NCBI GenBank assembly: GCA_900318295.1
Contig: ONKC01000003.1
Location: 10,155-74,154 of the forward strand
Length of the DNA: 64,000 nt
Direction: 5' to 3'
Origin: an uncultured Eubacteriales bacterium
GTDB lineage: Bacteria > Bacillota > Clostridia > Lachnospirales > Lachnospiraceae
The notes beneath the pieces were generated by a model. The model searched no databases, had not been told where the DNA came from, and was given only the letters and a program-made list of their open reading frames with translations. Made by a program: the position numbers and the translations under genes. Every line of letters starts with the position of its first letter. Position 1 is the stretch's first letter. Shown piece after piece: positions 8,722 to 32,198 of this stretch.

Positions 8722-8750
8722 TTGACACTCACCTATACATGTGATATGAT
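8722..8750 (+). promoter_or_regulatory. SigA promoter of purF
   Basis: TTGACA-N17-(TG)TATGAT. Confidence 0.85.
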
Positions 8751-8760
8751 ACATAGCGTT

Positions 8761-8806
8761 GAGGCAAAGGCGTCTCGGAGAAATCCGGGGCGCCTTTTAC
8801 TATTTT
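8761..8806 (+). ncRNA. Leader: ANTAR-type hairpin overlapping an intrinsic terminator (copy 1)
   Basis: GAGGC-AAAGGC-GTCTC hairpin is mutually exclusive with the 14-bp stem AAAGGCGTCTCGGA-gaaa-TCCGGGGCGCCTTT plus T-tract. Confidence 0.8.
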
Positions 8807-8816
8807 GGAGGTATCT

Positions 8817-10310
8817 ATGCATTCCATTCATGAAGAATGCGGTGTCTTCGGAGTTTATACAGATAAGCCTTATGCAGTGGCAAAGGATGTGTACTACGGT
8901 CTGTATTCACTTCAACATCGCGGGCAGGAAAGCTGTGGTATCGTTGTCGGCGACGACGGATTATTTTTCTCACATAAGGATATAGGTGAGGTTCACACCG
9001 TATTTGACGGAGAGATACTTGATAAGCTCCCCACGGGGACGATGGGCATAGGGCATGTCAGGTATTCGACGACAGGTGGGGACGGGAGAAATAACTGTCA
9101 GCCGATGGAGGTAAACCACCAGAAGGGGAGAATGGCGCTCGCTCACAACGGAAACATAAGTAATGCTTACGATCTTCGAAGTAAGCTCGAGCTTTCCGGA
9201 GCTATCTTTCACTCGACATCTGATACTGAGATCATCGCGTATCTGGTGACCAGAGAAAGGCTTACTCATCCGTCTATCGAAGAAGCGGTGATGGCGACCA
9301 TGCCTTATTTAGAGGGAGCATACTCACTTGTTTTGATGTCCGCGACCAAGCTTATCGCAGCTAGGGATCCTCATGGATTCAGACCTCTTTGCTATGGAAA
9401 AAAAGCAGACGGTCACTACATCGTGGCATCCGAGAGCTGTGCTTTAGAGGCGGTCGGAGCTGAGTTTATCAGAGATCTGATGCCGGGCGAGGTTCTGGTC
9501 TTCGGTCAGTCTGATGAAAAGGCTTTTTCTTCGGCACCTGTTCGCGCGGGAGTGACGGTAAAGAAGGAAGCGCCGGGAGTGATAAGCTACTCAAATCATG
9601 TAGAAAAAAAGAAGAAAAAGACATGTATTTTTGAGTACATATACTTCGCAAGACCTGACTCTGTTATCGATGGTGTATCAGTTCACGAGGCCAGGATAAG
9701 AGCCGGAAGGATCCTCGCAAGAGAGGATGATAAGGGTATCGCTGATGTGGTAGTGGGTGTGCCTGACTCAGGTCTTGATGCCGCTTTGGGGTATGCTTTG
9801 GAATCAGGGATACCATACGGTATAGGATTGATCAAAAATAAGTATATAGGAAGGACCTTTATCTCTCCGACGCAGGAGGAGAGAGTAAATCAGGTTCGTA
9901 TAAAGCTCAATCCTATCAGATCTACTGTAGAAGGAAAGAGGATAGTCCTTATAGATGACTCGATCGTGCGTGGCACGACGAGCGGGCATATCGTAAAACT
10001 CCTTCGCGATGCAGGCGCGAAGGAGATACATATGCGAATAAGTGCGCCACCGTTTTTACATCCGTGCTACTACGGTACGGATATAGATTCGGAGGAAAAT
10101 CTCATCGCCTGTCATCATAGTGTGGAGGAGATCGCAGGGATGATCGGTGCCGATTCTTTGAGTTATTTACCGGTAGGATCGCTGCATGAATTGATAAAAA
10201 GTAACGACTTTTGTAACGCGTGCTTTACAGGCGACTATCCGACGGAAGTGCCCGAAAATACTGAGAAAAATCGATTTGAGCAACCTCTGTCCAGGAGGAA
10301 TAATAACTAA
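8817..10310 (+). CDS. purF: Amidophosphoribosyltransferase
   Basis: Short propeptide then 'ECGVFG', 'QHRGQES', 'GHVRYST', 'HNGN', PRPP-binding 'LIDDSIVRGTT', Fe-S Cys residues (TCIF, PCYY, CNAC). ATG 8817 follows GGAGG. Confidence 0.93.
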   Translation: MHSIHEECGVFGVYTDKPYAVAKDVYYGLYSLQHRGQESCGIVVGDDGLFFSHKDIGEVHTVFDGEILDKLPTGTMGIGHVRYSTTGGDGRNNCQPMEVNHQKGRMALAHNGNISNAYDLRSKLELSGAIFHSTSDTEIIAYLVTRERLTHPSIEEAVMATMPYLEGAYSLVLMSATKLIAARDPHGFRPLCYGKKADGHYIVASESCALEAVGAEFIRDLMPGEVLVFGQSDEKAFSSAPVRAGVTVKKEAPGVISYSNHVEKKKKKTCIFEYIYFARPDSVIDGVSVHEARIRAGRILAREDDKGIADVVVGVPDSGLDAALGYALESGIPYGIGLIKNKYIGRTFISPTQEERVNQVRIKLNPIRSTVEGKRIVLIDDSIVRGTTSGHIVKLLRDAGAKEIHMRISAPPFLHPCYYGTDIDSEENLIACHHSVEEIAGMIGADSLSYLPVGSLHELIKSNDFCNACFTGDYPTEVPENTEKNRFEQPLSRRNNN

Positions 10311-10349
10311 AGAGATTCTTGATAATATTTAACAAGTGAAAGAAAATAG

Positions 10350-10378
10350 TTGACATTATTATTCATTTGTGTTATGAT
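10350..10378 (+). promoter_or_regulatory. SigA promoter of amt-glnK
   Basis: TTGACA-N17-(TG)TATGAT. Confidence 0.85.
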
Positions 10379-10388
10379 ACGTTTTGTT

Positions 10389-10434
10389 GAGGCAAGGGCG
10401 TCTCGGTTTTGTAACCGGGACGCCCTTTGTTTTT
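10389..10434 (+). ncRNA. Leader: ANTAR-type hairpin overlapping an intrinsic terminator (copy 2)
   Basis: GAGGC-AAGGGC-GTCTC. Terminator AAGGGCGTCTCGGTT-ttgt-AACCGGGACGCCCTT followed by TGTTTTT. Confidence 0.8.
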
Positions 10435-10462
10435 ATAAAAAATAGAAATGGAGGATAGGTTT

Positions 10463-12229
10463 ATGGAAGAAGTATTGGAGCTGATGGACGGGAAACTATT
10501 TGCAGTATGGTTCCTCATCGGTGCTGCTCTCGTCTTCTGGATGCAGGCGGGATTTGCGATGGTGGAGTCAGGATTTGCCAGGGCAAAAAATGCCGGCAAT
10601 ATCCTCATGAAGAACCTTATGGATTTTTGTATCGGGTGTGTGGTTTTTATCCTGATCGGTTTCGGTCTCCTTTTGGGAGAAGACATGGTGGGACTTATCG
10701 GAAAGCCCGGGCTTGATATTTTTACAGCGTATGCGGATTTTGATTGGTCAAACTTCGTGTTCAACCTTGTGTTCTGCGCGACTACAGCGACCATCGTATC
10801 CGGAGCTATGGCAGAGCGTACAAAGTTTTTGAGCTACTGCGTATACTCCGCTGTCATCTCGGCTTTGATCTATCCGATCGAGGCTCACTGGATCTGGGGA
10901 GGCGGCTGGCTTGCTCAGATGGGATTCCATGATTTTGCAGGGTCATGTGCGATCCATATGGTGGGTGGTATCGCAGCTTTAGTCGGAGCGATCATGGTCG
11001 GACCGCGTATCGGAAAGTTTGAGAGAGATAAGTCGGGAAAGGTTATCAAGGTAAATGCCTTCCCGGGACATAACCTTGTTATCGGAGCTTTGGGTGTGTT
11101 CATCCTGTGGCTCGGCTGGTATGGATTCAACGGTGCAGCTTGTACTACTGTTGAGCAGCTTGCATCTGTATTTGTTACGACTACCATCGCGCCTTCTGTT
11201 GCGACTGTGGTATGTATGGTCTTTACCTGGATCAGATACGGTAAGCCGGATGTGTCGATGTGTCTGAACGCATCTCTGGCAGGACTTGTAGCTATCACCG
11301 CTCCATGTGATGTGACTGATGCATCGGGTGCTATCGCTATCGGAGCTATCTCAGGACTTTTAGTGATCTTCGGAGTATGGCTTCTTGATTACAAGCTTCA
11401 TGTAGATGATCCGGTAGGTGCCGTAGCAGTTCATATGATGAACGGTATCTGGGGAACTATCGCAACCGGACTTTTTGCTACATCAAGCGCACCGGGCTTT
11501 GAGCTTGCAGGTATCAAGGAAGGTCTTTTCTACGGAGGAGGCTTTGATCAGCTCGGTATCCAGTTGGTTGGATTTGCGGCAGTAGCTGCCTGGGCAGCGG
11601 TCGGTATGCTTATCGTATTTGCGATCATCAAGGCTATCTTCGGACTTAGAGTAAGTGAGGAAGAGGAGCTCGAAGGACTCGATCTCACCGAGCATGGTTT
11701 GGCAAGTGCATATTCAGGCTTTTCTATCATGGATGTATCAACAGGTGCTATGTCAGCAAACGAGAACACAAACCTCGGTGTGGCTGCATATGAGGAAGCA
11801 AGTGAGGCGATGAGAAACGCCGCAGTTCCGGTAGAGAATGTAGCCAAAGAGCTCGAGGGAACTATACCTGATTCAGGTATCTACAAGGTTGTCATCATCA
11901 CCAAGCTGTCACGGTATGATAAGATGAAGAGAGCGCTGAACACTCTCGGTGTGACAGGTATCACGGTAACACAGGTCAGCGGTTGCGGTATCCAAAAAGG
12001 TGCCGGCGAGATGTACCGTGGAGTCGAGATGGACATGACACTTTTACCAAAGATCAAACTGGAGGTAGTAGTCAGCGGTATCCCTGTTGACAGCGTCATC
12101 GAGACCGCAAAGAAAACTCTTTACACCGGTAAGATCGGTGACGGAAAGATCTTTGTATATCCTGTAAACAGAGTCGTAAAGATCAGAACCGGAGAGGAAG
12201 ATTATGCTGCACTTCAGGATGTAGAATAA
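10463..12229 (+). CDS. amt: Ammonium transporter fused to a C-terminal PII (GlnK-like) domain
   Basis: Amt motifs 'MQAGFAMVESG', 'HDFAGS', 'DDPVGAVAVH' (twin His). PII motifs 'EMYRG', 'LLPKIK', 'TGKIGDGKIF', 'RTGE'. Start at ATG 10463 after GGAGG. Confidence 0.93.
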   Translation: MEEVLELMDGKLFAVWFLIGAALVFWMQAGFAMVESGFARAKNAGNILMKNLMDFCIGCVVFILIGFGLLLGEDMVGLIGKPGLDIFTAYADFDWSNFVFNLVFCATTATIVSGAMAERTKFLSYCVYSAVISALIYPIEAHWIWGGGWLAQMGFHDFAGSCAIHMVGGIAALVGAIMVGPRIGKFERDKSGKVIKVNAFPGHNLVIGALGVFILWLGWYGFNGAACTTVEQLASVFVTTTIAPSVATVVCMVFTWIRYGKPDVSMCLNASLAGLVAITAPCDVTDASGAIAIGAISGLLVIFGVWLLDYKLHVDDPVGAVAVHMMNGIWGTIATGLFATSSAPGFELAGIKEGLFYGGGFDQLGIQLVGFAAVAAWAAVGMLIVFAIIKAIFGLRVSEEEELEGLDLTEHGLASAYSGFSIMDVSTGAMSANENTNLGVAAYEEASEAMRNAAVPVENVAKELEGTIPDSGIYKVVIITKLSRYDKMKRALNTLGVTGITVTQVSGCGIQKGAGEMYRGVEMDMTLLPKIKLEVVVSGIPVDSVIETAKKTLYTGKIGDGKIFVYPVNRVVKIRTGEEDYAALQDVE

Positions 12230-12260
12230 TATGCGCATATGTTTGCCCAACATATGATAT

Positions 12261-12298
12261 AAAAAAAGGGAGCACCGACCAAAACGGTGTTCCCTTTT
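12261..12298. terminator. Bidirectional intrinsic terminator
   Basis: AAAGGGAGCACCG-accaaaa-CGGTGTTCCCTTT flanked by A- and T-runs. Confidence 0.85.
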
Positions 12299-12313
12299 GA
12301 CACACTACTCATA

Positions 12314-13564
12314 TCAGATACTTGTTTTTGCCTTTGAAAGCATCTCCATAAACTTAGGCGCCTTACCATAATGAAGGACTCCGGCACGATATATCCTCGC
12401 AGAAAGGATACCGATACCGATGGTTGATGCGATAAGTATGATCACCGATATAACTATCTCAAACCAAGCTATATTTCCCATTACAACTCGTGTGAACATA
12501 GCCATCGGAGATGTAAACGGGACATAAGATGCAACGACCATGATAGGAGAATTAACATCTCCGTTCATTCCGAATATAACGATCATAAATGCGATAACAA
12601 AGATCATCGTAACAGGTGTCTGAAGTGTGTTTATGTCCTCTACTTTTGTTGCCATGGAGCCTATCGCACCGAACATCATAGCATAAAGCATAAATCCCAA
12701 AATGAAGAATAACAGCAAATAGAATATCATCTCGGTCGGGATATTGAATATGGATCTGACGATCGGATTGTCGGTAAAGTAGTCACTGTTTATATTGTAG
12801 CATAAAACTGCAGTTCCGAATACCAGGATAAGCTGACTCATTCCGGCAACGCAAGCAGCAAGGATCTTTCCAAACATCAAAGCTGCCGGTCTCGCCGACG
12901 TGATAAGTACCTCCATAGCACGTGAACTTTTTTCGCTGGCAACATTTGTAGCGACCATCTGTCCGTATAGAAGTATGATCATATACAGTGCGAATATCAT
13001 GATATAAGTGTAAAAATAATTCTGCGACTGATCATTTCCTAAAACCTCGGCAGTGCCCTCGACAGTGATGTCGGATGCTTTTTTTAGCTCATCTGAGTTC
13101 ACGCCGGACTGCTTCATCAAAGTGTAATAATTCAGTCTTTCCATGGCGGCATCAGATGGCCCCTGCTTATCGGAATAGATGTTTAATGTCTCTACATAAT
13201 AAGTGTAGCTTTTCAGATCATGAATTACATACGCGTATGCATAGTCACCCGACATGATCTTTGTTTTGACGTTCTCAAGATCGGACTCTGCCACAAGCTC
13301 TTTTCCGTCGCTTTTAGCGATCTCTTCGAAGGCTTGCATTGCCAGATCCTTATCTACATCTCCTTCGACCAGGATAGCGACAGCGCTTTTGCTTTGAGCA
13401 TCTGTTTCGGTACCTTTCTCATCTGAGGAGAAGGACTGAAGTATGCGCGGTAAAAATAACGCGACAGCTATGACAACTACCAAAAAGATAGTTACTCCCA
13501 CGAAGGCTTTGTTTTTAAGATGGGCTCCGAGCTCAAAGCCGAATATAGTCTTAAACTGTTTCAT
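12314..13564 (-). CDS. ABC-2 permease (NatB/YhaP-like)
   Basis: 'VASEKSSRAMEVLITS...LMFGK' signature, one N-terminal TM, an extracytoplasmic domain and C-terminal TMs. Confidence 0.85.
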   Translation of the reverse strand: MKQFKTIFGFELGAHLKNKAFVGVTIFLVVVIAVALFLPRILQSFSSDEKGTETDAQSKSAVAILVEGDVDKDLAMQAFEEIAKSDGKELVAESDLENVKTKIMSGDYAYAYVIHDLKSYTYYVETLNIYSDKQGPSDAAMERLNYYTLMKQSGVNSDELKKASDITVEGTAEVLGNDQSQNYFYTYIMIFALYMIILLYGQMVATNVASEKSSRAMEVLITSARPAALMFGKILAACVAGMSQLILVFGTAVLCYNINSDYFTDNPIVRSIFNIPTEMIFYLLLFFILGFMLYAMMFGAIGSMATKVEDINTLQTPVTMIFVIAFMIVIFGMNGDVNSPIMVVASYVPFTSPMAMFTRVVMGNIAWFEIVISVIILIASTIGIGILSARIYRAGVLHYGKAPKFMEMLSKAKTSI

Positions 13565-14462
13565 CTTCAGTATTCACCTCACTTCCGGTATACTCTACAA
13601 ATATATCGTTCATCGACGGTTCATAAACTCTGATCTCATCGATCTCATACTCAGATGCGATCTTTTGCATGATCTGTTTTTTATTGTCAGGACTTGACAT
13701 TTTTAATATAAGAGAACCGTCTTCTTGCTTTTGACAGGCGTCGCCGTAGGCAGACATGATACTGTCAGCATTCTCGCTTTTTATGACAAGTTTGTCTCTG
13801 GTGTAGCTTCTTTTTATCTCGCGGATGTCACCGGAGAGAACTATATTTCCCTGATTTAAGATGGCTATGTTGTCGCAGAACTCCTCAACATAGTTCATCT
13901 GATGACTGGAGAAAAGAACGATCTTTCCTTCTTCAATCTGACTTTTAACCACGTCCTCAAGTATCATGGCGTTTACCGGATCAAGTCCCGAAAAAGGCTC
14001 GTCGAGAACAACTATATCAGGATTGTGGATAACAGCGGTGATCAGCTGGATCTTTTGCTGATTTCCTTTTGACAGGGTATCGAGACGAGCGTTTCTGTGC
14101 TCAAACATTCCGAGACGTCCGAGCCATTTGTCTACGCCTTTTTCAGCGTCAGCCCTGCTCATACCTTTAAGTCTTGCAAGGTAGACAAGCTGATCGAAGA
14201 TCTTTTTCTTCGGATATAGGCCTCTCTCTTCCGGCAGATATCCTTTACTTACTTTTTCATGGTCGATAGGTACTCCGTCGAGAAGAATCTCACCCGAGTC
14301 AGCACCAAACACATCCATAAGAATACGGATAGTCGTGGTTTTACCCGCTCCGTTTCTTCCCAAAAGCCCGAGTGCCTGACCGCTTTTTACGGACAGATTC
14401 ACGTCCTTTAGCACGTGCTTTTGACCGAAGCTTTTGTTGATGTTTTTCAATTCAAGCTGCAT
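13551..14462 (-). CDS. ABC ATP-binding protein (NatA/YhaQ-like)
   Basis: Walker A 'GRNGAGKTT', signature 'LSKGNQQK', Walker B 'VVLDEPFSGLDP'. Confidence 0.92.
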   Translation of the reverse strand: MQLELKNINKSFGQKHVLKDVNLSVKSGQALGLLGRNGAGKTTTIRILMDVFGADSGEILLDGVPIDHEKVSKGYLPEERGLYPKKKIFDQLVYLARLKGMSRADAEKGVDKWLGRLGMFEHRNARLDTLSKGNQQKIQLITAVIHNPDIVVLDEPFSGLDPVNAMILEDVVKSQIEEGKIVLFSSHQMNYVEEFCDNIAILNQGNIVLSGDIREIKRSYTRDKLVIKSENADSIMSAYGDACQKQEDGSLILKMSSPDNKKQIMQKIASEYEIDEIRVYEPSMNDIFVEYTGSEVNTEDETV

Positions 14463-14504
14463 TGCATATAACCTCCTTGGCTAATGTGTATTACCATCCT
14501 GCTG

Positions 14505-14533
14505 ATTATACTAAAAATTAGGAATTTCGTCAA
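14505..14533 (-). promoter_or_regulatory. SigA promoter of the ABC operon
   Basis: Minus strand TTGACG-N17-TATAAT, back-to-back with the radical SAM promoter. Confidence 0.75.
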
Positions 14534-14543
14534 ATTTTTTTGC

Positions 14544-14572
14544 TTGACAAGATAATCTTAATGATGTATAAA
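14544..14572 (+). promoter_or_regulatory. SigA promoter of the radical SAM gene
   Basis: TTGACA-N17-TATAAA. Confidence 0.7.
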
Positions 14573-14673
14573 GTGAGATAAAGTGGGTGGAGATGTCGAA
14601 GATATGCCTATGCGTAGGGCATATCAGTATAGTCAGACATCGCAAAAAGCAATAATAGGAGGGAGATAAAACT

Positions 14674-15768: not shown

Positions 15769-15800
15769 ATAAAAGTATAAATGCTTTCTGAAATTTTTTC

Positions 15801-15829
15801 TTGACAAGTTTCTAAAAATATGATATGAT
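15801..15829 (+). promoter_or_regulatory. SigA promoter of asnB-glnN-gltBD
   Basis: TTGACA-N17-(TG)TATGAT. Confidence 0.85.
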
Positions 15830-15839
15830 GCGTTGCAGT

Positions 15840-15888
15840 GAGGCAAAGGCGTCTCAGAGGAAACTCTGGGACGTCTTTGTCTTTCTTT
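15840..15888 (+). ncRNA. Leader: ANTAR-type hairpin overlapping an intrinsic terminator (copy 3)
   Basis: GAGGC-AAAGGC-GTCTC. Terminator AAAGGCGTCTCAGAG-gaaa-CTCTGGGACGTCTTT followed by GTCTTTCTTT. Confidence 0.8.
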
Positions 15889-15907
15889 GGTTTAGGAGGA
15901 CAAAAAA

Positions 15908-17608
15908 ATGTGCGCGATACTGACTTATGCAAGGCCTGATGTGTCCGAAGGCTTCTTTTCGGAGATGCTTATGAAGACGCAGTCGAGAGGACCGGACATG
16001 TCCGATCACATCAAGGTAAAAAGAGGCTGGATCGGATTCAATCGTTTGTCGATCATGGGACCGGGAGCTACGGGCATGCAGCCCTTCACACATCGAGGAA
16101 ACGCTGTAGTGTGCAACGGTGAGGTGTACGGGTTCGGACCTTTGAAGGAGTATCTGTCATCGATCGGATATCCTTTTGAGAGCGGAAGCGATTGCGAACT
16201 TCTGATGCCGTTATACGAGAAGCTCGGTGTGGCGATGTTTAATCTTTTGGATGCGGAGTTCGCCTGTGTGATATACGACGGTGAAAAGGACGAGTTTATC
16301 GCAGCCCGCGATCCGATAGGCATCAGACCTTTGTACTACGGTTATGATGATGAAGGATATATACTGTTTGCGTCGGAACCGAAAAACATAGTCGGTGTTG
16401 CCAAGGAAATAAAACCGTTTCCACCGGGACATTTTTATAAAAACGGAGAGTTCACAAGCTACCGTGATATGACCACGGGCGGTGTATATGCGAAGGCAGG
16501 CTGGAATCCCGGAAAGGCCGGACAGGGAAGACACTTAAGCGGAGTCGGAAACGCCCACAGTCGTGCTACTGCAGGAAGCATGACTTTGTCAAACGGACTC
16601 GGGATAATGGATGAAGGAGTGGATGCAATATGTGAAGGCATCCATGACAGACTGATAGGTGGTATAAAAAAACGACTTACCGCGGACCAGCCGATAGGGT
16701 TTTTGTTATCGGGAGGACTTGATTCATCGCTTGTATGCGGTGTGGCGGCAAAGCTACTGCCGGAGCCGATACCGACATTTGCGATAGGAATGGATATCGA
16801 TGCGATCGATCTGAAGTACGCAAGGCAGGTTGCGGACTACATACACTCGGATCATCACGAGGTGATCATAACGGCAGAGGATGTCATAGAGGCTGTGGAG
16901 CCGGTGATACAGGCGCTCGCCACCTACGACATCACGACGATCAGAGCGTCGATCGGTATGTATCTTCTCTGCAAGTGGATCAGGGAGAATACGGATATAA
17001 AGGTTTTGCTCACCGGGGAAATATCGGATGAGCTTTTCGGATATAAGTACACGGACTTCGCACCGAGTGCGGAGGAGTTTCAGGAGGAGTCTAAAAAAAG
17101 GATCAGGGAGCTTCACATGTATGATGTGCTCAGAGCCGATCGCTGTATCAGCGTAAACTCTTTGGAAGCCAGAGTGCCGTTTGGAGATCTCGATTTCGTC
17201 GACTATGTGATGGCGATAGATCCCGAGAAAAAAATGAATACCTACGGCATCGGAAAGTATCTTCTAAGACATGCTTTTGAAAAGGATGAGTTCATCCCGC
17301 ATGAGATTCTGATGAGAGAAAAAGCTGCCTTTTCCGATGCGGTCGGTCACAGCCTGAGAGATGATCTGATCGATCTGGCAGAAAAGACCTACACTGATGA
17401 AGCTTATGAGGAGGGTATAAAAAAATATACCCACGCTAAGCCTTTTACAAAAGAGTCACTTTTATATCGCGACATTTTTGAAAAGTATTATCCCGGGCAG
17501 TCGCATATGGTAACGGATTTCTGGATGCCGAATAAGTCCTGGGATGGTTGCAACGTTAATGATCCGTCTGCCCGAGTTCTATCGAACTACGGAGCATCAG
17601 GAGAATAA
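15908..17608 (+). CDS. asnB: Asparagine synthase (glutamine-hydrolysing)
   Basis: Ntn Cys2 'MCAI', 'RGPD', 'CNGEVY', 'RDPIGIRPLYYG', PP-loop 'LSGGLDSS', 'SLEARVPF'. Confidence 0.93.
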   Translation: MCAILTYARPDVSEGFFSEMLMKTQSRGPDMSDHIKVKRGWIGFNRLSIMGPGATGMQPFTHRGNAVVCNGEVYGFGPLKEYLSSIGYPFESGSDCELLMPLYEKLGVAMFNLLDAEFACVIYDGEKDEFIAARDPIGIRPLYYGYDDEGYILFASEPKNIVGVAKEIKPFPPGHFYKNGEFTSYRDMTTGGVYAKAGWNPGKAGQGRHLSGVGNAHSRATAGSMTLSNGLGIMDEGVDAICEGIHDRLIGGIKKRLTADQPIGFLLSGGLDSSLVCGVAAKLLPEPIPTFAIGMDIDAIDLKYARQVADYIHSDHHEVIITAEDVIEAVEPVIQALATYDITTIRASIGMYLLCKWIRENTDIKVLLTGEISDELFGYKYTDFAPSAEEFQEESKKRIRELHMYDVLRADRCISVNSLEARVPFGDLDFVDYVMAIDPEKKMNTYGIGKYLLRHAFEKDEFIPHEILMREKAAFSDAVGHSLRDDLIDLAEKTYTDEAYEEGIKKYTHAKPFTKESLLYRDIFEKYYPGQSHMVTDFWMPNKSWDGCNVNDPSARVLSNYGASGE

Positions 17609-17683
17609 CAGAAGCGCGAGCGCTATGGTAGGGGTCCGACCGCGCTTGCACAGGAAACTTTAGTAGAATAGGAGGATAGAATC

Positions 17684-19792
17684 ATGATTGAAGCTAAAAA
17701 GTTACCCGAGGAATACGGAAGTTTGGTTTTCGGCGATAAGGTGATGCGCGAGCGTCTGCCGAAGGACGTTTATAAGGCGGTCCACAAGACGATCGTCAGC
17801 GGGACTCACCTTGAGCTCGATGTGGCAAACGCAGTTGCGGTTGCGATGAAGGAGTGGGCGATCGAAAACGGTGCTACTCATTATACACATTGGTTCCAGC
17901 CGATGACAGGACTTACCGCGGAGAAGCACGACAGCTTTATCTCACCGGAAGGTGACGGAAGTGTGATCATGGAGTTTTCAGGAAAGGAGCTTGTAAAGGG
18001 CGAGCCTGATGCATCGAGCTTTCCTTCAGGAGGACTTCGTGCAACCTTCGAGGCAAGAGGATATACGGCATGGGATCCGTCATCGCCGGCATTTATCAAG
18101 GACGGGTCGCTTTACATCCCGACTGCCTTTTGCTCATACGGCGGAGAGGCACTTGATAAAAAGACACCGCTTCTTCGTTCGATGGAGGCTCTGTCAAAGG
18201 AAGCAGTAAAAATGATGAAGCTGCTCGGATATGAAGATGTAAACAGAGTGAATACAACAATAGGGTCTGAGCAGGAGTATTTTTTAATAGATAAAGATGA
18301 CTATATGAGAAGAAAGGATCTTCTTTTTACCGGACGTACACTTATCGGCGCTCCGGCGACCAAAGGTCAGGAGATGGAGGATCACTACTTCGGTGTGATC
18401 AAGCCTAAGGTTTCAGCCTTCATGCATGATCTGGATGAGGAGCTTTGGAAGCTCGGTATCCCGGCTAAAACAAAGCACAACGAGGTCGCTCCGTCTCAGC
18501 ACGAGATGGCACCGGTATTTGAGACAGCAAACGTCGCAGTCGATCACAACCAGCTGACGATGGAGGTCATGAAAAAAGTTGCCGACAAGCACGGTTATGC
18601 ATGCCTCCTTCATGAGAAGCCTTTCGAGGGTATCAACGGATCAGGTAAGCACAACAACTGGTCAATCTGCACCGATACGGGGATCAACCTTTTGGATCCG
18701 GGCAAGCATCCGGATGAGAACATCCCGTTCCTCATCACACTGATCGCAGTCATCGCGGCAGTAGATGAGTACGCACCGCTTCTTCGTCTGTCCGTGGCAA
18801 GTGCAGGAAACGACCACAGACTCGGAGCAAACGAGGCACCGCCGGCAGTTATCTCAATCTTTGTCGGAGATGAGTTGACCAAGGTACTTGACAGCATCAG
18901 AAGCGGAAAGAGCTTCAAGGGTGCAGGAAAAGAAAAAATGGAGATGGGTGCACAGGTACTTCCGCACATCACCAAAGATAATACAGATCGTAACCGTACA
19001 TCACCGTTCGCATTTACCGGAAACAAGTTCGAGTTCCGTATGCCGGGTTCATCGGTATCTGTTGCAAACGCAAACATCGTTTTGAATACAGCAGTGGCAG
19101 AGGTCATCTCACGCATGACCGAAAAGCTTTCAGGGCTCGCCGGAGACGAACTTCACGACGCACTGACCGCCCTTTTGAAAGAGGAGCTTATAGCGCATGA
19201 AAAAGTACTGTTTAACGGAAACGGTTACACTGATGAGTGGATCGCTGAAGCAGAAAAGAGAGGTCTCCCGAACCTGAAAGCTCTTCCGGATGCTATGCCT
19301 CATTGGATTGGAGAGCCGTCTGTAGAGCTTTTCACCAAGCATCAGATCTTTACAAAAGAGGAGCTTGATTCGAGATATGAGATCCTGCTTGAGAACTATT
19401 CGAAGTCGATAAATATCGAAGCACTCACGATGCAGGAGATGGTTCGAAAAGATCTGACGAGCGGCATCATCGCATATGAACAGGATCTGACCAAGGAGAT
19501 ACTTCAGAAGGAACAGGCACTTCCGGGAGCAAAGGCAGCGCTTGAAGGAAACATCTTAAAGACACTTGATGAGGCATCCTCACAGATCGCCGTAAAGCTT
19601 GAGACACTTAAAAAGGATACGCTTGAAGCAGAGAGTATCGAAGATCCTCTGGCACAGGCTGATTTCTATGAGAAAAAAGTGCTTGCGGATATGGATGAAT
19701 TGAGAGTATATACCGATCAGGCAGAGGCTTTGATCCCGGATGAATACCTGACCTATCCGACATACGGACAGATGCTGTTTTCACTTAGATAA
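17684..19792 (+). CDS. glnN: Glutamine synthetase type III
   Basis: 702 aa. 'ATHYTHWFQP', 'GEPDASSFPSGG', 'FEARGYTAWD', 'HNEVAPSQHE', 'NGSGKHNNWS', 'DRNRTSPFAFTGNKFEFR'. Confidence 0.95.
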   Translation: MIEAKKLPEEYGSLVFGDKVMRERLPKDVYKAVHKTIVSGTHLELDVANAVAVAMKEWAIENGATHYTHWFQPMTGLTAEKHDSFISPEGDGSVIMEFSGKELVKGEPDASSFPSGGLRATFEARGYTAWDPSSPAFIKDGSLYIPTAFCSYGGEALDKKTPLLRSMEALSKEAVKMMKLLGYEDVNRVNTTIGSEQEYFLIDKDDYMRRKDLLFTGRTLIGAPATKGQEMEDHYFGVIKPKVSAFMHDLDEELWKLGIPAKTKHNEVAPSQHEMAPVFETANVAVDHNQLTMEVMKKVADKHGYACLLHEKPFEGINGSGKHNNWSICTDTGINLLDPGKHPDENIPFLITLIAVIAAVDEYAPLLRLSVASAGNDHRLGANEAPPAVISIFVGDELTKVLDSIRSGKSFKGAGKEKMEMGAQVLPHITKDNTDRNRTSPFAFTGNKFEFRMPGSSVSVANANIVLNTAVAEVISRMTEKLSGLAGDELHDALTALLKEELIAHEKVLFNGNGYTDEWIAEAEKRGLPNLKALPDAMPHWIGEPSVELFTKHQIFTKEELDSRYEILLENYSKSINIEALTMQEMVRKDLTSGIIAYEQDLTKEILQKEQALPGAKAALEGNILKTLDEASSQIAVKLETLKKDTLEAESIEDPLAQADFYEKKVLADMDELRVYTDQAEALIPDEYLTYPTYGQMLFSLR

Positions 19793-19808
19793 AAATCAAA
19801 CTAAAATG

Positions 19809-19846
19809 CATGGAAGGGAACCGACCTCCTTAGGTTTCCTTCCATG
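19809..19846 (+). other. Intercistronic 14-bp hairpin between glnN and gltB (no U-tract)
   Basis: CATGGAAGGGAACC / GGTTTCCTTCCATG. Confidence 0.6.
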
Positions 19847-24417: not shown

Positions 24418-24539
24418 CAGTTTCCGTTCGGAGGTCCGCTTGCGCCATTTCCGAGCGTAGCGGTGCACGGCTTGAGAATACCAAGCCTGCGCACCGACGC
24501 TCGCAAAGCCTCCTCACAAAAACTGTCATCAGAAACCTG
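24404..24539. repeat. About 135-bp nested imperfect palindrome (REP/MITE-like) overlapping the gltB stop codon
   Basis: Outer arms CAGGTTCTGACTGACAGTTT / AAACTGTCATCAGAAACCTG. Inner arms GAGCGT..GGTGC..GGCTTG / CAAGCC..GCACC..ACGCTC. Confidence 0.7.
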
Positions 24540-24589
24540 ATATACTGAGATTGAAAACTATATATGTACTTTTTTATAGGAGTGATAAC

Positions 24590-26056: not shown

Positions 26057-26084
26057 TGACATATGTCATCAAGTGGTGTATAAT
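26056..26084 (+). promoter_or_regulatory. Promoter of carAB with a palindrome TGACATATGTCA over the -35
   Basis: GTGACA-N17-TATAAT. Perfect 12-bp palindrome at 26057-26068. Confidence 0.6.
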
Positions 26085-26142
26085 ATTCCGCAGCAAAAGT
26101 CTATGAGCATATTATTTAGATGAAAAACGAGGTGACAGATTC

Positions 26143-27165
26143 ATGAACGAACAAAAAAGAAGACTGATCCTCGAAGACGGGACCGTTTTTATCGGTGAGG
26201 GCTTCGGGGCAGAGTCTGATGCGGTGTGTGAGCTTGTCTTCAACACGTCGATGGTCGGTTATCAGGAGATAGTTTCCGATCCGTCCTATACAGATCAGGC
26301 GGTGGTGATGAGCTATCCTTTGATCGGTAACTACGGGATCACGGATGAGGATTTCGAGAGCAGGATCGTAGCTCCGACCGCATTTATCGTCAGGGATTAT
26401 AATGATCAGCCGTCGAACTTCAGGTACACGAAAACCCTGTCGGAGCTGCTCGCGGATAACGGCATCCCCGGTGTTACAGGGATTGATACGAGGAAGCTGG
26501 TAAGACATATCAGGGATCACGGATCTCAGAGGGTACTTATCACCTCGGATAATATAAGTCCGGAGGAAGGACAAAAAAGGATAGCAGATACGCCTGTACC
26601 ACACGATTCGGTCAGTCGTGTAAGCTGTAAAAAAAGATGGTATGCAAGAACAGCAAATCCGAGATTTAATGTTGTCGCCATCGACTGCGGTATCAAATTA
26701 AATATCGTCCGTATGCTGAACAAATACGGCTGCAACGTAGTTGTAGTACCGTATGACACGGGAAGTGAGAACATCCTTCAGATGCATCCGGACGGTGTTT
26801 TTGTGTCCAACGGTCCCGGTGATCCGGCTGATGTGAGTGTGGTAACAAAGACGATACAAAACCTCATCGGCAAGCTTCCGATATTTGGAATATGCTTAGG
26901 TCATCAGCTTATCGCAAGAGCATACGGAGCGGATACATACAAGTTAAAATTCGGTCACAGGGGAGTAGATGAAAAGACGATTAAAAATGATAAAATAAAG
27001 GTGTCACATATGAACCTTTTGGATAATACAGTCGAAGGTATCGTGTGTCCTTCCGATAAGGTGATGTCGGTGCAGTATCATCCCGAGAGCGCACCGGGAC
27101 CGAAGGACAGCGCGTATCTTTTTGATCAGTTTGTAGCGTTAATGGAGGAAGAAAAAAATGCCTAA
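26143..27165 (+). CDS. carA: Carbamoyl-phosphate synthase small subunit with an in-frame internal deletion
   Basis: 'LEDGTVF', '[10 protein letters not shown]', 'SNGPGDP', 'GICLGHQ', 'QYHPES'. The usual 'NHPV...SQNH' segment is missing after GHRG. Confidence 0.9.
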
Positions 27166-30100
27166 AAGAAATGATATAAAAAAGGTATTGGTGATAGGAT
27201 CGGGACCTATCGTTATCGGCCAGGCAGCGGAGTTTGATTATGCAGGTACGCAGGCTTGTCTCGCTTTGAAAGAAGAGGGGTATGAGGTCATCCTGGCAAA
27301 CTCCAATCCCGCTACCATCATGACAGATACCACCATAGCGGATAAGGTATATATGGAGCCGCTCACTCTGGAGTTCATGGCCAGGATCTGTCGTTATGAA
27401 AGACCGGATGCCATCGTACCCGGTATCGGAGGCCAGACGGGACTGAACTTAGCTTTGCAGCTCAGCGAAAAAGGAGTTCTCGATGAGTGTGAGATAGAGC
27501 TTTTGGGAACCGATAAAGAGAGTATCCAAAGAGCAGAGGACAGAGAGCTTTTCAAAGAACTTTGCGAAGAGATCGGAGAACCTGTCATCCCTTCGCAGAT
27601 CACTTATTCTATCGAAGAGGGATTGAAGGCAGCAGAGGAGATCGGGTATCCGGTTATCCTTCGTCCGGCGTTCACCCTCGGCGGAACGGGTGGTGGATTT
27701 GCCTACGATAAAGAAGAGATGAAGATAAAGATGGAGCATGCCTTGGAGGCTTCACCCGTACATCAGGTACTCGTAGAAAAAAGTATACGAGGATACAAAG
27801 AGATCGAGTATGAGGTTATCCGTGATGCAAATGACACCGCGATAGTAGTCTGCAACATGGAGAACTTGGACCCTGTCGGGATCCATACCGGAGACTCGAT
27901 AGTAGTCGCACCTTCACAGACTCTGACCAACAGAGAATATCATATGCTCAGAGACTCGGCTCTAAAGATCATCCGTGCATTAAAAGTAGAGGGCGGATGT
28001 AATGTCCAGTATGCGCTTGATCCAGAGAGCTTCCGTTACTATGTGATCGAGGTTAATCCGCGTGTGTCAAGATCATCAGCACTCGCATCAAAGGCGAGCG
28101 GATATCCGATCGCGAGAGTGTCGGCAAAGATCGCAGTCGGTATGCGACTTGATGAGATACAGCTTGCAAACACACCTGCATGCTTTGAGCCGTCACTTGA
28201 CTATGTAGTTACAAAAATGCCACGATTCCCGTTTGATAAGTTTACTACCGCATCAAACACGCTTTCCACCCAGATGAAGGCGACAGGTGAGGTCATGAGT
28301 GTCGGACGCACGATGGAGGAGAGCTTACTTAAAGCGATAAGGTCTTTGGAGGACGGTAAAAATCATATCCATCTCGAGAAGTTTGACTCAAAAAATATGT
28401 CTGTCGACGAGCTTTTAGATTATATAAAAGAAGGAACCGATGACAGGATATATGCGATCGCTCAGCTGATGTGGATGGGTGTCGATCCGTCTGTTATTAA
28501 TCAGCGAACAATGATCGATATGTTCTTCCTCGACAAGATAAAAAATATAGTATTATTTGAGAAAGAAATAGAGGGTGCACACCTCACAAGAGAGCTTGTA
28601 ATAAAAGCAAAAAGGATCGGTTTTTCAGACTCTTATATCGCCGAGCTGACTCAGAAAACAGAGGATGAAATATGGAAGTTCAGACGTGAAGAAAAGATCA
28701 GTCCGGTATATAAAATGATCGATACCTGCGCAAGCGAGTTTGAAAGCTATGTACCTTATTTTTACTCTACTTATGAGGAAGAAAATGAGAGTATAGTAAG
28801 TGATAAAGAAAAGATAATTGTACTTGGAAGCGGACCGATAAGGATCGGTCAGGGAGTCGAGTTTGATTACTCAACAGTCCATGCGATAAGAGCGATAAGA
28901 GAGCTCGGTTACGAAGCGATTGTTATTAATAATAACCCGGAGACTGTATCCACGGATTATACCACCGCTGACAAGCTTTACTTCGAGCCTTTGACCATCG
29001 AGGATATCATGAATATCATCGATCTCGAAAAGCCGAAGGGAGTGATAGTAACACTCGGCGGACAGACTGCCGTGAACCTTGCCGAGCCTCTTACAAGAAG
29101 AGGTGTAAAGATCATCGGTACAGACAGTGAGGCTATCGATAAGGCAGAGGACAGAGATTCATTTGAGTCTGTGATAAGAGAGCTTGATATCCCGCATCCG
29201 ACAGGTGAGGCGGTAACAAGTATAGAGGCCGGTGTAGAGGCAGCAAAGAGGATCGGTTATCCGGTACTTGTCCGTCCGAGCTTCGTACTCGGAGGACGTG
29301 CGATGGAGATCGTCGCAAATGAAGAGATGCTTCGTACTTATCTTAAAAATGCGGTTGAAGTAGATGTAGATAAGCCTGTTTTGGTAGACCGTTATATCGT
29401 CGGAAAAGAAGTCGAGGTCGATGCGATCTGTGATGGTGAGGATGTATTTATCCCGGGTATCATGGAGCTTGTGGAAAGGACCGGTGTCCACTCCGGAGAT
29501 TCGACAAGTGTTTATCCGCCGTTCTCTATCTCGGAAAAAGTAAAAGACACAATCCGAGAGTACACCACGAGGATCGGAAAAGGTATCGGTATAGTTGGTC
29601 TTTTCAACATCCAGTATATAGTTGACGGAGAAGAGGTTTACATCATAGAAGTAAATCCCAGAGCGAGCCGAAGCGTGCCATTTTTATCAAAGAGCACGGG
29701 CTTTTCTCTGGTAGGTATCGCTACGAAGGCGATGCTCGGAGTGTCAATAAGAGATCAGGGTATAGAAAGCATGTATCCGGCGGAGAAGCAGTATCACTTT
29801 GTGAAGGCACCTGCGTTCTCATTTGAAAAGCTGGCCGGGATGGATGCGTATCTCTCACCTGAGATGAAGTCGACGGGTGAGGCGATAGGATATGATTCGC
29901 AGCTTAATCGAGCATTTTATAAAGCGCTTCAGGCTTCCGGCATAAAAATGAAGGAGTACGGAACTGTCGTAGTAACACTCGCCGATGAGGACAAGGAGGA
30001 AGCACTGCCGCTGGTAGAGAGGTTCTATCAGCTTGGCTTCAATATCGAAGCGACACCGGGTACCGCGACATTTTTAAAGAATCACGGAGTCAGAACGCGT

Positions 30101-30337
30101 ATGAGAGGAAAGCTTTCGGAGGGAAGCGACGAGATCCTCAGGTCGATACGCGCAGGCTATGTCAGCTACATCCTGAATACCAGGGCGATACTTTCTGGCG
30201 TGCACTATGAGGACGGTGTGGCGATCAGAAAGTGTGCGGTCGCAAACGGAGTGACGATGTTTACATCGCTCGATACTGTAAGAATTCTTTTGGATGTTTT
30301 AGAGGAGATATCACCGCGCATCAGAGCGCTGGAGTAG
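27158..30337 (+). CDS. carB: Carbamoyl-phosphate synthase large subunit
   Basis: '[17 protein letters not shown]', two ATP-grasp halves ('[10 protein letters not shown]', 'EVNPRASRS'), C-terminal MGS domain. Overlaps the carA stop. Confidence 0.96.
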
Positions 30338-30418
30338 GTGAATCAGAGTGATACAGTGTATGGCAAAAGCTGCGTGCAGTCTTGATCCGGGCTGTGATGC
30401 ATGGAAAGGAAGGAAACT

Positions 30419-31588
30419 ATGACCTATACTAAAGAAGAGATAATGCAATACATGGAGGAGGAAGACGTTAAGTTTATACGTCTTATGTTCCGTGATGCAT
30501 TCGGCGTGCAGAAAAATATCTCGATAATGCCGACCGAGTTAAAAAAAGCTTTCGAGGGTGGCATAGGAATCAATGCGAGGAGAATCCCGGGCTTCGAAAG
30601 GAGTGAGACCGCGGAGCTCTATCTGGTGCCGGATCCCGAGACCATCACTGTGCTTCCGTGGAGACCGGAGAGCGGAAGGGTCGTCAGGATGTACTGCGAC
30701 GTGTGCGGTCCTGATCGTACACCTCAGAAAAATGACACGCGTGTGATGCTTAAAAATGCGATCGAGCATGCTAAAAAAGAGGGTATAGAGTTTAAGTTCG
30801 GATCAAAGTCTGAGTTCTATCTTTTCAAGCTTGATGACGAGGGAAACCGCACCGAGATCCCTTATGATGATGCCGGATATATGGATATCGCACCTCTCGA
30901 TATGGGTGAAAATATCCGTCGTGAGATATGTCTTACTATCGAGAGGATGGGGCTTCGTCCGGAGCGCTCGCACCATGAGCAGGGACCTGGTCAGAATGAG
31001 ATAGATTTCCATCACGGCGAGCCGCTGACGGCAGCGGATCAGATGTCTACTTTTATGATGGCGGTGCAGACTATCGCCGGGAGGAACGGATTGTATGCTG
31101 ACTTCTCACCGGTCCCTATAAAGGATATGCCCGGTAACGGTTATCATATAAACATGTACGCTTCGGATGCACAGGGTAATGATGTATGTCGATATGCGGC
31201 AGCGGGAATACTTGATAAGATTAGAGAGATCACTCTGTTTTTAAATCCGAGTGAAAACTCCTATCGCAGGTTCGGGACCAACACAGCGCCGGATCGTATA
31301 AACTGGACGGCAGAGGGCGAGACCTCACTTATGCATGTGTCTGAAAAACTCGGAGGAATAAGAGCTGAGCTTCGTTCGCCGGATGCTCTTTCTAATCCTT
31401 ATCTGGCTTACTCGATCCTTATCGAAGCGGGCCTGTATGGAATTAAAAATAAGCTCGAGCTGCCGGAAGAAACAGGTGATGAAAATCTCCTTCCGCAGTC
31501 ACTAAAAGAAGCGAGAGAAATCGCGGCAAAAAGTGAGTTTATAAAGAGTATTGTTTCTGAAGATATTTTTGATGAATATATGGGTTGA
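30419..31588 (+). CDS. Glutamine synthetase type I-fold protein, probably catalytically inactive
   Basis: Colinear with GSI ('VKFIRL', 'HHEQGPGQNEIDF', 'RAELRSPDALSNPYL'), but 'GPEPEF' reads 'GSKSEF', 'GYEAP' reads 'NTAP', 'NRSPLIRIP' reads 'GETSLMHVS'. The C-terminal tail is absent. Confidence 0.85.
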   Translation: MTYTKEEIMQYMEEEDVKFIRLMFRDAFGVQKNISIMPTELKKAFEGGIGINARRIPGFERSETAELYLVPDPETITVLPWRPESGRVVRMYCDVCGPDRTPQKNDTRVMLKNAIEHAKKEGIEFKFGSKSEFYLFKLDDEGNRTEIPYDDAGYMDIAPLDMGENIRREICLTIERMGLRPERSHHEQGPGQNEIDFHHGEPLTAADQMSTFMMAVQTIAGRNGLYADFSPVPIKDMPGNGYHINMYASDAQGNDVCRYAAAGILDKIREITLFLNPSENSYRRFGTNTAPDRINWTAEGETSLMHVSEKLGGIRAELRSPDALSNPYLAYSILIEAGLYGIKNKLELPEETGDENLLPQSLKEAREIAAKSEFIKSIVSEDIFDEYMG

Positions 31589-31594
31589 TAGTAT

Positions 31595-32179
31595 ATGGCT
31601 GATGGAAGCGTAAGACAACACGATATACTGATCGTCTCGTCAAACGAGAAGTTCAGTGACAGTGTGACGCGGGCTCTCTCGGACGGGAGATACCGCGATG
31701 TTGACGTGCGCAAAAGTGCTTCCGCAGCCCGCAGAGAACTCCTCGAAAAAAGCTATGATGTAGCTATGATAAACATGCCTCTTTCGGATGAGCCGGGAGT
31801 GGATCTCGCGATAGATATCGCATCGACTTATCCCACCGGAGTGCTGATAATAGCTTCCTCGGAGATCAGTGAAGACGTCGCGGAAAAGGTAACAGACGAC
31901 GGAATAATAGTGATCGCCAAGCCCGCTTCCGCACGCATCGTAAAGCGTGCTGTCAGGGTTTTATGTGCCCTCCTCGATAAGCTGAAAAAATCCGAAAAAA
32001 AAGTCCTCACTCTGGAGGAAAAGATGGAAGAGATCCGCATCGTAAATCGTGCGAAATGGAAGCTTATAGATGAGAAAAAAATGGGCGAAGATGAAGCCCA
32101 TCGCTACATCGGGAAGCTGGCGATGGATAAGTGCATCTCAAAAGGGGATGCTGCGAGAGAAATATTAGGAGGGATCTAA
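31595..32179 (+). CDS. ANTAR-domain antiterminator with a pseudo-receiver domain (NitR/EutV-like architecture)
   Basis: C-terminal ANTAR 'IVNRAKWKLI..KMGEDEAHRYIGKLAMDKCISKGDAAREIL'. Receiver has 'IVSS' in place of 'IVDD' and 'INMP' in place of 'D.MP'. Confidence 0.9.
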   Translation: MADGSVRQHDILIVSSNEKFSDSVTRALSDGRYRDVDVRKSASAARRELLEKSYDVAMINMPLSDEPGVDLAIDIASTYPTGVLIIASSEISEDVAEKVTDDGIIVIAKPASARIVKRAVRVLCALLDKLKKSEKKVLTLEEKMEEIRIVNRAKWKLIDEKKMGEDEAHRYIGKLAMDKCISKGDAAREILGGI

Positions 32180-32198
32180 AAGATCCCTCCCCTTTTTT
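32168..32198 (+). terminator. Intrinsic terminator ending the nitrogen cluster
   Basis: GGAGGGATCT-aaa-AGATCCCTCC plus T6, overlapping the stop codon. Confidence 0.85.

Follow-up and report, generated by a model that had tools for sequence, protein, structure and literature searches.

A Candidate RNA-Level Nitrogen Regulon in Rumen Clostridia, Combining a Degenerate Glutamine Synthetase, a Pseudo-Receiver ANTAR Protein and Single-Hairpin Leaders

A 64-kb stretch of a rumen Clostridia genome (contig ONKC01000003.1; hereafter, the window) carries a nitrogen-assimilation locus in which a glutamine synthetase (GS)-like gene directly precedes a gene for an ANTAR-domain protein and three transcription units begin with RNA leaders of the same design. 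The gene order, called by Pfam scans of the open reading frames (ORFs), is purF, an amtB-glnK fusion, an ABC-2 transporter/radical-SAM island, asnB, glnN, gltB, gltD, carA, carB, the type I GS (GSI)-like gene, and the receiver-ANTAR gene. Together, asnB-glnN-gltBD-carAB and the last two genes make up a 16-kb assimilation operon. On balance, the locus appears to be an RNA-level nitrogen regulon of the clostridial NitR type, in which the GS-like protein would control the ANTAR protein and the ANTAR protein would control the leaders. The leaders are probably protein-dependent attenuators read by the ANTAR protein. We also lean toward the view that the GS-like protein is the sensory partner of the ANTAR protein, a contact suggested by synteny and analogy. 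A negative action of the GS-like protein, relieved by 2-oxoglutarate (2-OG), is put forward tentatively. So is the complete scheme, in which a noncatalytic GS paralog may read 2-OG and gate the ANTAR protein via its pseudo-receiver, with single 5' hairpins switching on nitrogen genes. The three-part architecture of attenuator leaders, noncatalytic GSI paralog, and pseudo-receiver ANTAR protein was first described in an original prediction made from the window alone; it holds, and the comparative data presented here strengthen it.

The GS-like gene (30419..31588, plus strand; alternative start 30401) encodes a protein of 395 aa from 30401 and probably of 389 aa from 30419. The ORF call at 30401 is probably too long; the likely start is the ATG at 30419, which has the ribosome-binding site (RBS) GGAAAGGAAGG, and homologs are 389-390 aa long. 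Both Pfam Gln-synt_N and Gln-synt_C are matched, corresponding to the GS fold with its beta-grasp N domain and catalytic C domain. GSI-alpha structures match over the full length, the best being M. mazei GlnA1 (E 5.6e-87), and identity to the closest ones is 39-40%. An AF2 model (pLDDT 85) aligns in Foldseek with the M. mazei enzyme (8s59) at a TMq of 0.92 and an E of 1e-43, and the nearest structures are GS enzymes solved with their partners GlnK1, GlnR, or TnrA, including 4s0r and 7tf6-7tfe. The score against the TIGR00653 GlnA equivalog model is 260.1 bits, under the cutoff of 429.15.

The catalytic set of GS comprises the flap Glu327, Asp50', six metal ligands, and Arg339, Arg344, and Arg359 (S. 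typhimurium numbering). Much of this set is replaced in the window protein. With positions given in the 395-aa ORF, the substitutions are D50' to N58, E129 (a metal ligand) to K136, N264 to P244, the flap E327 to T295, R339 to E307, and R344 to H312. Ten residues are deleted after His269, the C-terminus is shorter by ~25 residues, and there is an internal gap of 15 residues. Among 81 members of the GS-like family, the flap Glu is present in one, with Lys in 53 and Thr in 15, and N264 is Pro in 79. E131, E212, E220, and H269 are invariant, and E129, E357, R321, and R359 are nearly so. The Lachnospiraceae subclade that contains the window protein has additionally replaced D50', E129, R339, and R344. 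The family is best described as flap-less and truncated, with its ligand-binding shell largely preserved, and the window's subclade appears to have decayed further. These data suggest that the GS-like protein is a noncatalytic GSI-alpha paralog. They bear out the original description of a degenerate GSI-fold gene closing the cluster, given the subthreshold equivalog score, the replacement of the flap Glu and other catalytic residues, and the shortened C-terminus. The type III GS (GSIII) of the same operon (glnN, 17684..19792, plus strand; Pfam GSIII_N) aligns over its full length with the B. fragilis GlnN structure 3o6x (663 bits), and all catalytic motifs are present (EQEYF, HNEVAPSQHE, NGSGKH, NEAPP, and FEFR). 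To judge by its sequence, it is intact and supplies the catalytic GS of the operon, as had been proposed.

The residues that remain in the GS-like family bear on its signal. In M. mazei GSI-alpha, 2-OG occupies an inter-subunit pocket made of F24, R26, R87, R172', R173', and S189'; the pocket residues in M. thermolithotrophicus are F18, R20, R88, R174, R175, and S191, and B. subtilis-type GS is without this allosteric pocket (PMC11957540, PMC10799026). The six residues are conserved in 80-81 of the 81 GS-like members, and in the window protein they are F25, R27, R88, R173, R174, and S190. Full retention of the pocket in a protein that is shedding catalytic residues argues for its use. The original prediction favored another signal: the dead GS would respond to glutamine or glutamate in its relic active site, in the manner of B. 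subtilis GS (BsGS) under feedback inhibition, and would sequester or activate the ANTAR protein. The glutamine lock of BsGS needs the flap Glu304 and Arg62 of the Asp50' loop (PMC10799026). The flap Glu is lost in 80 of the 81 GS-like members, and the Arg62 equivalent is absent in 78; the window protein is one of the three that keep it, a point in favor of glutamine or glutamate sensing. Such sensing is also consistent with the 95-100% conservation of the glutamate and metal ligands E131, E212, E220, H269, R321, E357, and R359 and with the presence of GS-GlnR and GS-TnrA complexes among the closest structures. However, beyond the lost lock, the substrate/nucleotide site is eroded in the window's own subclade, which has given up D50', E129, R339, and R344. 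Because the pocket is conserved and the flap Glu and Arg62 are mostly lost, 2-OG is, by residue conservation, the better-supported signal, and glutamine or glutamate sensing as originally proposed seems unlikely. The two modes are compatible with each other, and the retained glutamate and metal site could give a second input.

The adjacent gene (31595..32179, plus strand) encodes a NitR-like putative antiterminator with an ANTAR domain at residues 140-191 (PF03861; 51.1 bits versus a cutoff of 27.3), and the protein aligns with Rv1626 (1s8n) across the linker and ANTAR domain. Its N-terminal domain passes the Pfam Response_reg cutoff narrowly (31.0 versus 30.2 bits). Ser15 and Ser16 occupy the place of the acidic pair and Asn60 that of the phospho-acceptor Asp, and K109 is kept. 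The same degeneracy recurs in 74 ANTAR partners of the family (CheY numbering): D12 is Ser in 73, D13 is Ala or Ser in 59, D57 is Asn in 69, T87 is Val in 57, and K109 is kept in 67. In many of these partners (P0162-P0240), the receiver is so degenerate that precomputed Pfam annotation lists the ANTAR domain alone. By these residues, the domain is a pseudo-receiver that is not phosphorylatable, throughout the family. No kinase gene was found between window positions 6485 and 35560, the 29 kb that were annotated. Both the nonphosphorylatable receiver and the lack of an adjacent cognate kinase had been anticipated.

The two genes form a strictly conserved pair. GS-like homologs of about 390-405 aa number in the thousands, and a scan of one genome per species returned at least 594 relatives; the best 80 of these at least 594 come from Lachnospiraceae, Oscillospiraceae, Ruminococcus, Christensenellaceae, Erysipelotrichales-like bacteria (Allobaculum), Peptococcaceae, and others. 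At every complete locus from other species, that is, every one uncut by a contig end, an ANTAR gene of ~194 aa lies directly 3' on the same strand (77 of 77; median spacer, 29 bp). In the reciprocal direction, ANTAR homologs at ~45% identity have a Gln-synt gene of 398-407 aa directly upstream in three of three look-ups. The spacer in the window is 6 bp, the distance originally reported. The two genes share a reading frame, separated by a double stop, TGA TAG TAT (31586-31597), and the ANTAR gene has no obvious strong RBS; translational coupling or reinitiation is therefore possible.

The strict adjacency and short spacers suggest a functional pair. Alternatively, the GS-like protein could be a divergent ligase or a coexpressed metabolic protein, with the ANTAR protein governed by some other partner (the PII domain of AmtB-GlnK, for example) or only by how much of it is made under control of its own leader. 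Most family members do retain metal ligands and several ATP/phosphate arginines, and GS-like paralogs that act as gamma-glutamyl-amine ligases are known (GSI-gamma, PMC10799026). PII proteins are a classic family of 2-OG sensors, and amtB-glnK lies inside the regulon. We nevertheless regard this alternative as quite improbable. Whichever gene is taken as the starting point, the adjacency holds strictly across Clostridia families, and a pseudo-receiver would need a protein partner, by analogy with AmiR and NasT. Moreover, the window's subclade has lost catalytic residues, yet 40% of its columns are invariant among sequences down to 64% identity. Deregulation is also what the title of a paper on GS deletion in C. 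thermocellum announces, and this does not fit a GS-like protein without a regulatory role.

The presumed RNA targets of the ANTAR protein stand in front of purF, amtB-glnK, and the asnB operon, where terminator leaders of identical architecture had been noted. The 16-mer GAGGCAA[A/G]GGCGTCTC occurs in the whole window only at 8761, 10389, and 15840, each time exactly (0 mismatch) and 10-11 nt 3' of a TTGACA-17-TGnTATGAT promoter. These promoters are three of the four 11/12 matches in the region 8600-16000 and the only three with the TG extension, and the three terminator-like hairpins that rank strongest in that region each enclose one of the 16-mers. All of these elements are on the plus strand. 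The purF unit has its promoter (TTGACA-17-TATGAT with TG extension, 11/12) at 8722..8750 and the hairpin GAGGC-AAAGGC-GUCUC, with a 5-bp stem and an A1/G4 hexaloop, at 8761..8776. Its intrinsic terminator (8766..8807; 14-bp stem, T-rich tail) has a minimum free energy (MFE) of -26.3 kcal/mol and a fold z-score of -4.9. The amtB-glnK unit has a promoter at 10350..10378 (11/12, TG extension), the hairpin GAGGC-AAGGGC-GUCUC at 10389..10404, and a terminator at 10394..10437 with a 15-bp stem and a T-run (z -7.3). In the 16-kb operon, the promoter is at 15801..15829 (11/12, TG extension), the hairpin GAGGC-AAAGGC-GUCUC at 15840..15855, and the terminator at 15840..15893, with a 20-bp stem (z -8.1). 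MFE values of the full leaders range from -26 to -35 kcal/mol. Without the 3' arm, the first 26 nt form a 5-6-bp stem capped by AAAGGC or AAGGGC as hexaloop. Since this loop and the hairpin's 3' half also serve as the terminator's 5' arm, either structure excludes the other. Rfam gave only chance-level matches (the whole window at gathering thresholds; 8600-16000 in E-value mode), and the leader belongs to no curated family. A riboswitch or T-box identity was considered and rejected, as the conserved part, a 16-nt hairpin, is too small for a riboswitch aptamer.

Comparison across genomes supports the hairpin as a conserved element. A total of 81 sources (1.2 Mb) were searched for the core CAANGRYG, which covers the loop and closing pair, together with a terminator that pairs the loop and the 3' half-stem; this criterion is blind to the 5' half of the stem. 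The search yielded 98 sites where shuffled sequence predicts 6.5. At 80 of them, the other four stem positions are complementary in register; with the partner slid, this holds for ~1 of 98. In the formal count, 93.8% of cells are paired versus 38-55% for slid partners, 101 cells carry double changes, and none of 500 shuffles reached the observed score. A-U, U-A, and G-C alternate at one stem position. The loop consensus is A-A-N-G-G-C, with A1, A2, and G4 invariant. ANTAR substrates are recognized by A1 and G4 of a hexaloop and by conserved closing pairs (Ramesh et al. 2012, PMC3369931). The hexaloop and closing pairs found here agree with this rule, the 5-bp stem is longer than the minimum of at least 3 bp, and the hairpin overlaps the 5' arm of an intrinsic terminator, as is expected of an ANTAR substrate. 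A strong promoter ends 7-13 nt 5' of the hairpin in 48 of 82 leaders, and in these the transcript begins 0-5 nt before the stem. A second ANTAR hairpin, whether upstream, in the apical terminator loop, or in tandem units, was sought and rejected: besides the 48 promoter-proximal leaders, only one of 82 apical loops fits A1/G4, and the 8 of 82 leaders that are second units of tandem pairs belong to arrangements in which each unit is a complete attenuator. Leader and gene pair co-occur across genomes, with a leader less than 10 kb from the ANTAR gene in 46 of the 81 sources and leaders standing before nitrogen genes. It is very improbable, despite the missing Rfam match, that the leaders have nothing to do with the ANTAR protein and instead act as simple constitutive attenuators or serve another RNA-binding factor, given the A1/G4 hexaloop with its conserved closing pairs, a 5' half-stem that is dispensable for termination yet kept by covariation, the closeness of leaders to the ANTAR gene and their presence before the ANTAR operon itself, and a hairpin too small for an aptamer.

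The genes that follow the leaders define a broad regulon. They include glnN, amtB-glnK, asnB, large or split glutamate synthase (GOGAT) genes, purF, carAB, and the GS-like/ANTAR pair itself. Pfam identified further leader-preceded genes as those for CTP synthase (pyrG), GMP synthase (guaA), SAICAR synthase (purC), adenylosuccinate synthetase and lyase (purA, purB), glutamate dehydrogenase (gdhA), and a class I/II aminotransferase; pyrG, guaA, purC-purA-purB, gdhA, or the aminotransferase is found behind a leader at loci L003, L026, L046, L167, L170, L194, L031, and L093. The regulon thus spans ammonium uptake, GS/GOGAT/glutamate dehydrogenase, nucleotide biosynthesis, and almost every glutamine amidotransferase. 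Two stem flavors are seen. AAGGC/GUCUU is usually found ahead of glnN-amtB-asnB. UGAGC/GUUCA, whose terminator is longer, stands ahead of the genes for GOGAT, the GS-like protein, and the ANTAR protein; the two flavors often diverge from one intergenic region (L025-L078 and L201-L204, e.g. L201 2306-2712) and may reflect different affinities or thresholds. The window's clade uses the GAGGC/GUCUC stem for all three units. One exact 16-mer was also used to scan metagenome contigs independently; of 125 matches, 53 have a terminator and lie mostly before glnN, amtB, asnB, or purF, and several of these stretches also hold the GS-like/ANTAR pair. The other 72 exact matches, from unrelated environments and without a terminator, were set aside as chance. 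The reverse strand of a leader terminator may itself read as motif plus terminator (L201 2645-2712; L053 8171-8226), and such bidirectional look-alikes inflate naive motif counts.

These analyses allow a mechanism to be proposed. By default, transcription would start from the strong sigma-70 promoter 0-5 nt before the 16-nt hairpin (5-bp stem, hexaloop A-A-N-G-G-C), the 13-20-bp intrinsic terminator would form, and transcription would stop 5' of the first gene. Upon induction, the ANTAR protein would hold the nascent hexaloop hairpin and withhold the 5' arm of the terminator, and RNA polymerase would read through. The activity of the ANTAR protein would be set by its GS-like neighbor through contact with the pseudo-receiver, with AmiC-AmiR, NasS-NasT, and GS-TnrA/GlnR as models. 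When nitrogen is plentiful and 2-OG is low, the GS-like oligomer would sequester or inactivate the ANTAR protein, and the leaders would terminate. When nitrogen is short, 2-OG would fill the inter-subunit pocket, possibly with glutamate or ATP at the relic active site, and the remodeled GS-like protein would free the ANTAR protein. The freed protein would antiterminate amtB-glnK, glnN, GOGAT, asnB, purF, carAB, and its own operon; the last of these would constitute positive feedback.

Several parts of this proposal have published counterparts. A 2012 study predicted that ANTAR regulons in Firmicutes include nitrogen genes (Ramesh et al. 2012, PMC3369931). In C. saccharobutylicum NCP262 (formerly C. 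acetobutylicum P262), NitR, encoded 3' of glnA, reportedly induces GS/GOGAT by antitermination when nitrogen is limiting (Stutz et al. 2007, cited in PMC6316151), so that clostridial glnA-nitR pairs are, as the original prediction states, already described; how NitR works in clostridia was termed 'not fully understood' in a 2018 review (PMC6316151). As in C. saccharobutylicum, the present locus places a GSI-family gene and then an ANTAR gene in a nitrogen-assimilation cluster of Clostridia. The C. saccharobutylicum glnA product is a full-length, active GS, whereas the GS partner here is shortened, flap-less, and below the GlnA equivalog cutoff, and catalysis is left to GSIII. An antisense RNA belongs to the published glnA-nitR system; here, the search for one turned up only a minus-strand promoter-like site at 31618-31590, a 9/12 match at chance level. 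We know of no GS-NitR contact or ligand described for glnA-nitR.

In C. thermocellum, the ANTAR gene Clo1313_2030, the type I-alpha GS gene Clo1313_2031, and the five-gene GOGAT cluster Clo1313_2032-2036 are co-regulated (PMC4676874). The order of Clo1313_2030-2036 is that of many loci here (L047, L050, L068, L078, and L201). According to the title of Rydzak 2017, deletion of the C. thermocellum type I GS 'deregulates nitrogen metabolism', and papers citing that study refer to ethanol and amino-acid phenotypes of the deletion. The published C. thermocellum work treats the gene as that of a metabolic GS and leaves the mechanism unresolved. The mutant reportedly shows a nitrogen-starvation transcriptional response despite high glutamine, which would be in keeping with the GS-like protein as a negative regulator.

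In systems of the AmiR/NasT type, an ANTAR protein with a nonphosphorylatable, receiver-like domain is kept inactive by a ligand-binding partner from the adjacent gene and is freed by ligand (PMC3369931; PMC3795266). The present pair resembles AmiC-AmiR of Pseudomonas aeruginosa and NasS-NasT of Paracoccus denitrificans in combining a pseudo-receiver ANTAR protein with a candidate ligand-binding partner encoded next to it. AmiC and NasS have a periplasmic-binding-protein fold and respond to amides or nitrate, whereas the candidate here is a GS-fold oligomer that would report general nitrogen status. A second parallel is B. subtilis GS-TnrA/GlnR, in which a GSI-alpha binds a regulator as nitrogen sensor and whose structures 4s0r and 7tf6-7tfe rank near the top among matches to the GS-like protein. 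B. subtilis GS is an active enzyme with glutamine feedback through the flap Glu and Arg62, and its output is DNA binding; the GS-like protein is predicted to be noncatalytic, its lock residues are gone, and it would act through RNA antitermination. Closest in sequence and structure (39-40% identity, TMq 0.92) are M. mazei GlnA1 and M. thermolithotrophicus GS, with which the GS-like protein shares the six 2-OG residues. Both are active enzymes, and 2-OG turns on their assembly or activity. In contrast, the GS-like protein is without the catalytic flap, ~25 C-terminal residues, and an internal C-terminal segment, a region that bears inter-ring contact helices in M. mazei. The leaders themselves resemble the EutV/EutW substrate in their A1/G4 hexaloop, closing pairs, and overlap with the 5' arm of the terminator (Ramesh et al. 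2012). Full-text literature searches found no description of a GS-ANTAR contact, of the flap-less family, of its 2-OG pocket, or of the single-hairpin leader, and 'ANTAR' and 'antiterminat' are absent from a 2025 review of GS regulation. Already published, then, are glnA-nitR, the ANTAR nitrogen regulons, and, as far as the title of that paper tells, a regulatory effect of deleting the C. thermocellum type I GS. The present analysis adds a pseudoenzyme family with a conserved 2-OG pocket, a receiver that is degenerate throughout the family, a lone hairpin at the 5' end, and a wide regulon.

Several points weigh against the proposed mechanism. Outside the window's subclade, most GS-like members keep the six metal ligands, D50', R339, and R344, and partial or altered catalysis may therefore remain. 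A full-length clostridial GSI at locus L046 has the 2-OG pocket too, and the pocket may thus be no more than an inherited feature. Judging from the leaders, the RNA target departs from the canonical pair of hairpins, as a lone hexaloop hairpin stands at the transcript's 5' end. This is one of two points of difference from the original prediction, the other being the signal. EutV is phosphorylated by a kinase and acts as a dimer on two tandem hairpins (P1/P2, with a short linker), whereas here there is no nearby kinase, no phospho-site, and one 5'-terminal hairpin. Clo1313_2031 is placed in the flap-less family by synteny only, and deleting the C. thermocellum GS could have acted in part through polarity on the ANTAR gene that lies downstream of it. 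Rumen metatranscriptome contigs cover amtB and glnN patchily, mostly with relatives at 90-95% identity, and leave the leaders uncovered. Finally, we infer all four functional links, namely, binding of the hairpin by the ANTAR protein, contact between the GS-like and ANTAR proteins, the sign of control, and the ligand.

The remaining genes of the regulated units are all on the plus strand. The gene for the amidophosphoribosyltransferase PurF (8818..10310; Pfam GATase_6/7 and Pribosyltran) has an ORF call that opens at 8805 and is probably too long; the likely ATG is at 8818, with the RBS GGAGG. The ammonium transporter and PII (GlnK) domain are joined in a single ORF of 593 aa (10448..12229; Pfam; NCBIfam TIGR00836, 419 bits), and a comparable amtB-glnK fusion is mentioned for C. 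thermocellum Clo1313_2260 (PMC4676874). In the long operon, Pfam places the glutamine-dependent asparagine synthase gene asnB at 15908..17608, the glutamate synthase genes gltB and gltD at 19873-24417 and 24551-26056, and the carbamoyl-phosphate synthase genes carA and carB at 26143-27165 and 27158-30337. No strong internal terminator was found within it. Its end is marked by an intrinsic terminator at 32168..32198 (plus strand; 10-bp stem with 6 GC pairs, T-run) that overlaps the ANTAR stop codon and coincides with the end coordinate given in the original prediction. The leader, fold, terminator, and gene data together show that the description and coordinates in that prediction were correct. 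A promoter-like site, GTGACA-17-TATAAT (11/12), lies just 5' of carA inside the operon (26056-26084) and may drive carAB and the GS-like and ANTAR genes independently of the leader.

Other genes lie between and around these units. Between two regulated units, 12314-15768 holds a pair of ABC-2 transporter genes on the minus strand and, on the plus strand, a radical-SAM gene; they have promoter-like sites of their own and no leader. Tryptophan-pathway genes flank the cluster on both sides (6485-8626 and 32361-33740). On one side lie trpE and trpG, which likewise encode a glutamine amidotransferase pair and run divergently from the purF leader; on the other, a TrpB-like pyridoxal phosphate (PLP) enzyme is encoded 3' of the operon terminator, with its own promoter at 32275-32303.

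Nitrogen sensing in the dominant gut and rumen Clostridia (Lachnospiraceae, Oscillospiraceae, Ruminococcus, Christensenellaceae, and relatives) is poorly understood. The three-part module described here occurs in hundreds of species of gut Clostridia and is probably their main nitrogen switch. Its parts are a candidate sensor that has a 2-OG pocket, an antiterminator with a pseudo-receiver, and a 16-nt RNA operator; it is present in at least 594 species-level genomes, and with these three defined components the question becomes directly testable in vitro. If correct, the proposal would establish a signaling route from a pseudoenzyme to RNA that uses neither phosphorylation nor a DNA-binding regulator. 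It would also give the GS family an example of a pseudoenzyme and ANTAR proteins a single-hairpin mode of RNA recognition. The module would offer a handle on the nitrogen-use efficiency of rumen bacteria, and it may account for the amino-acid overflow phenotypes exploited in C. thermocellum engineering.

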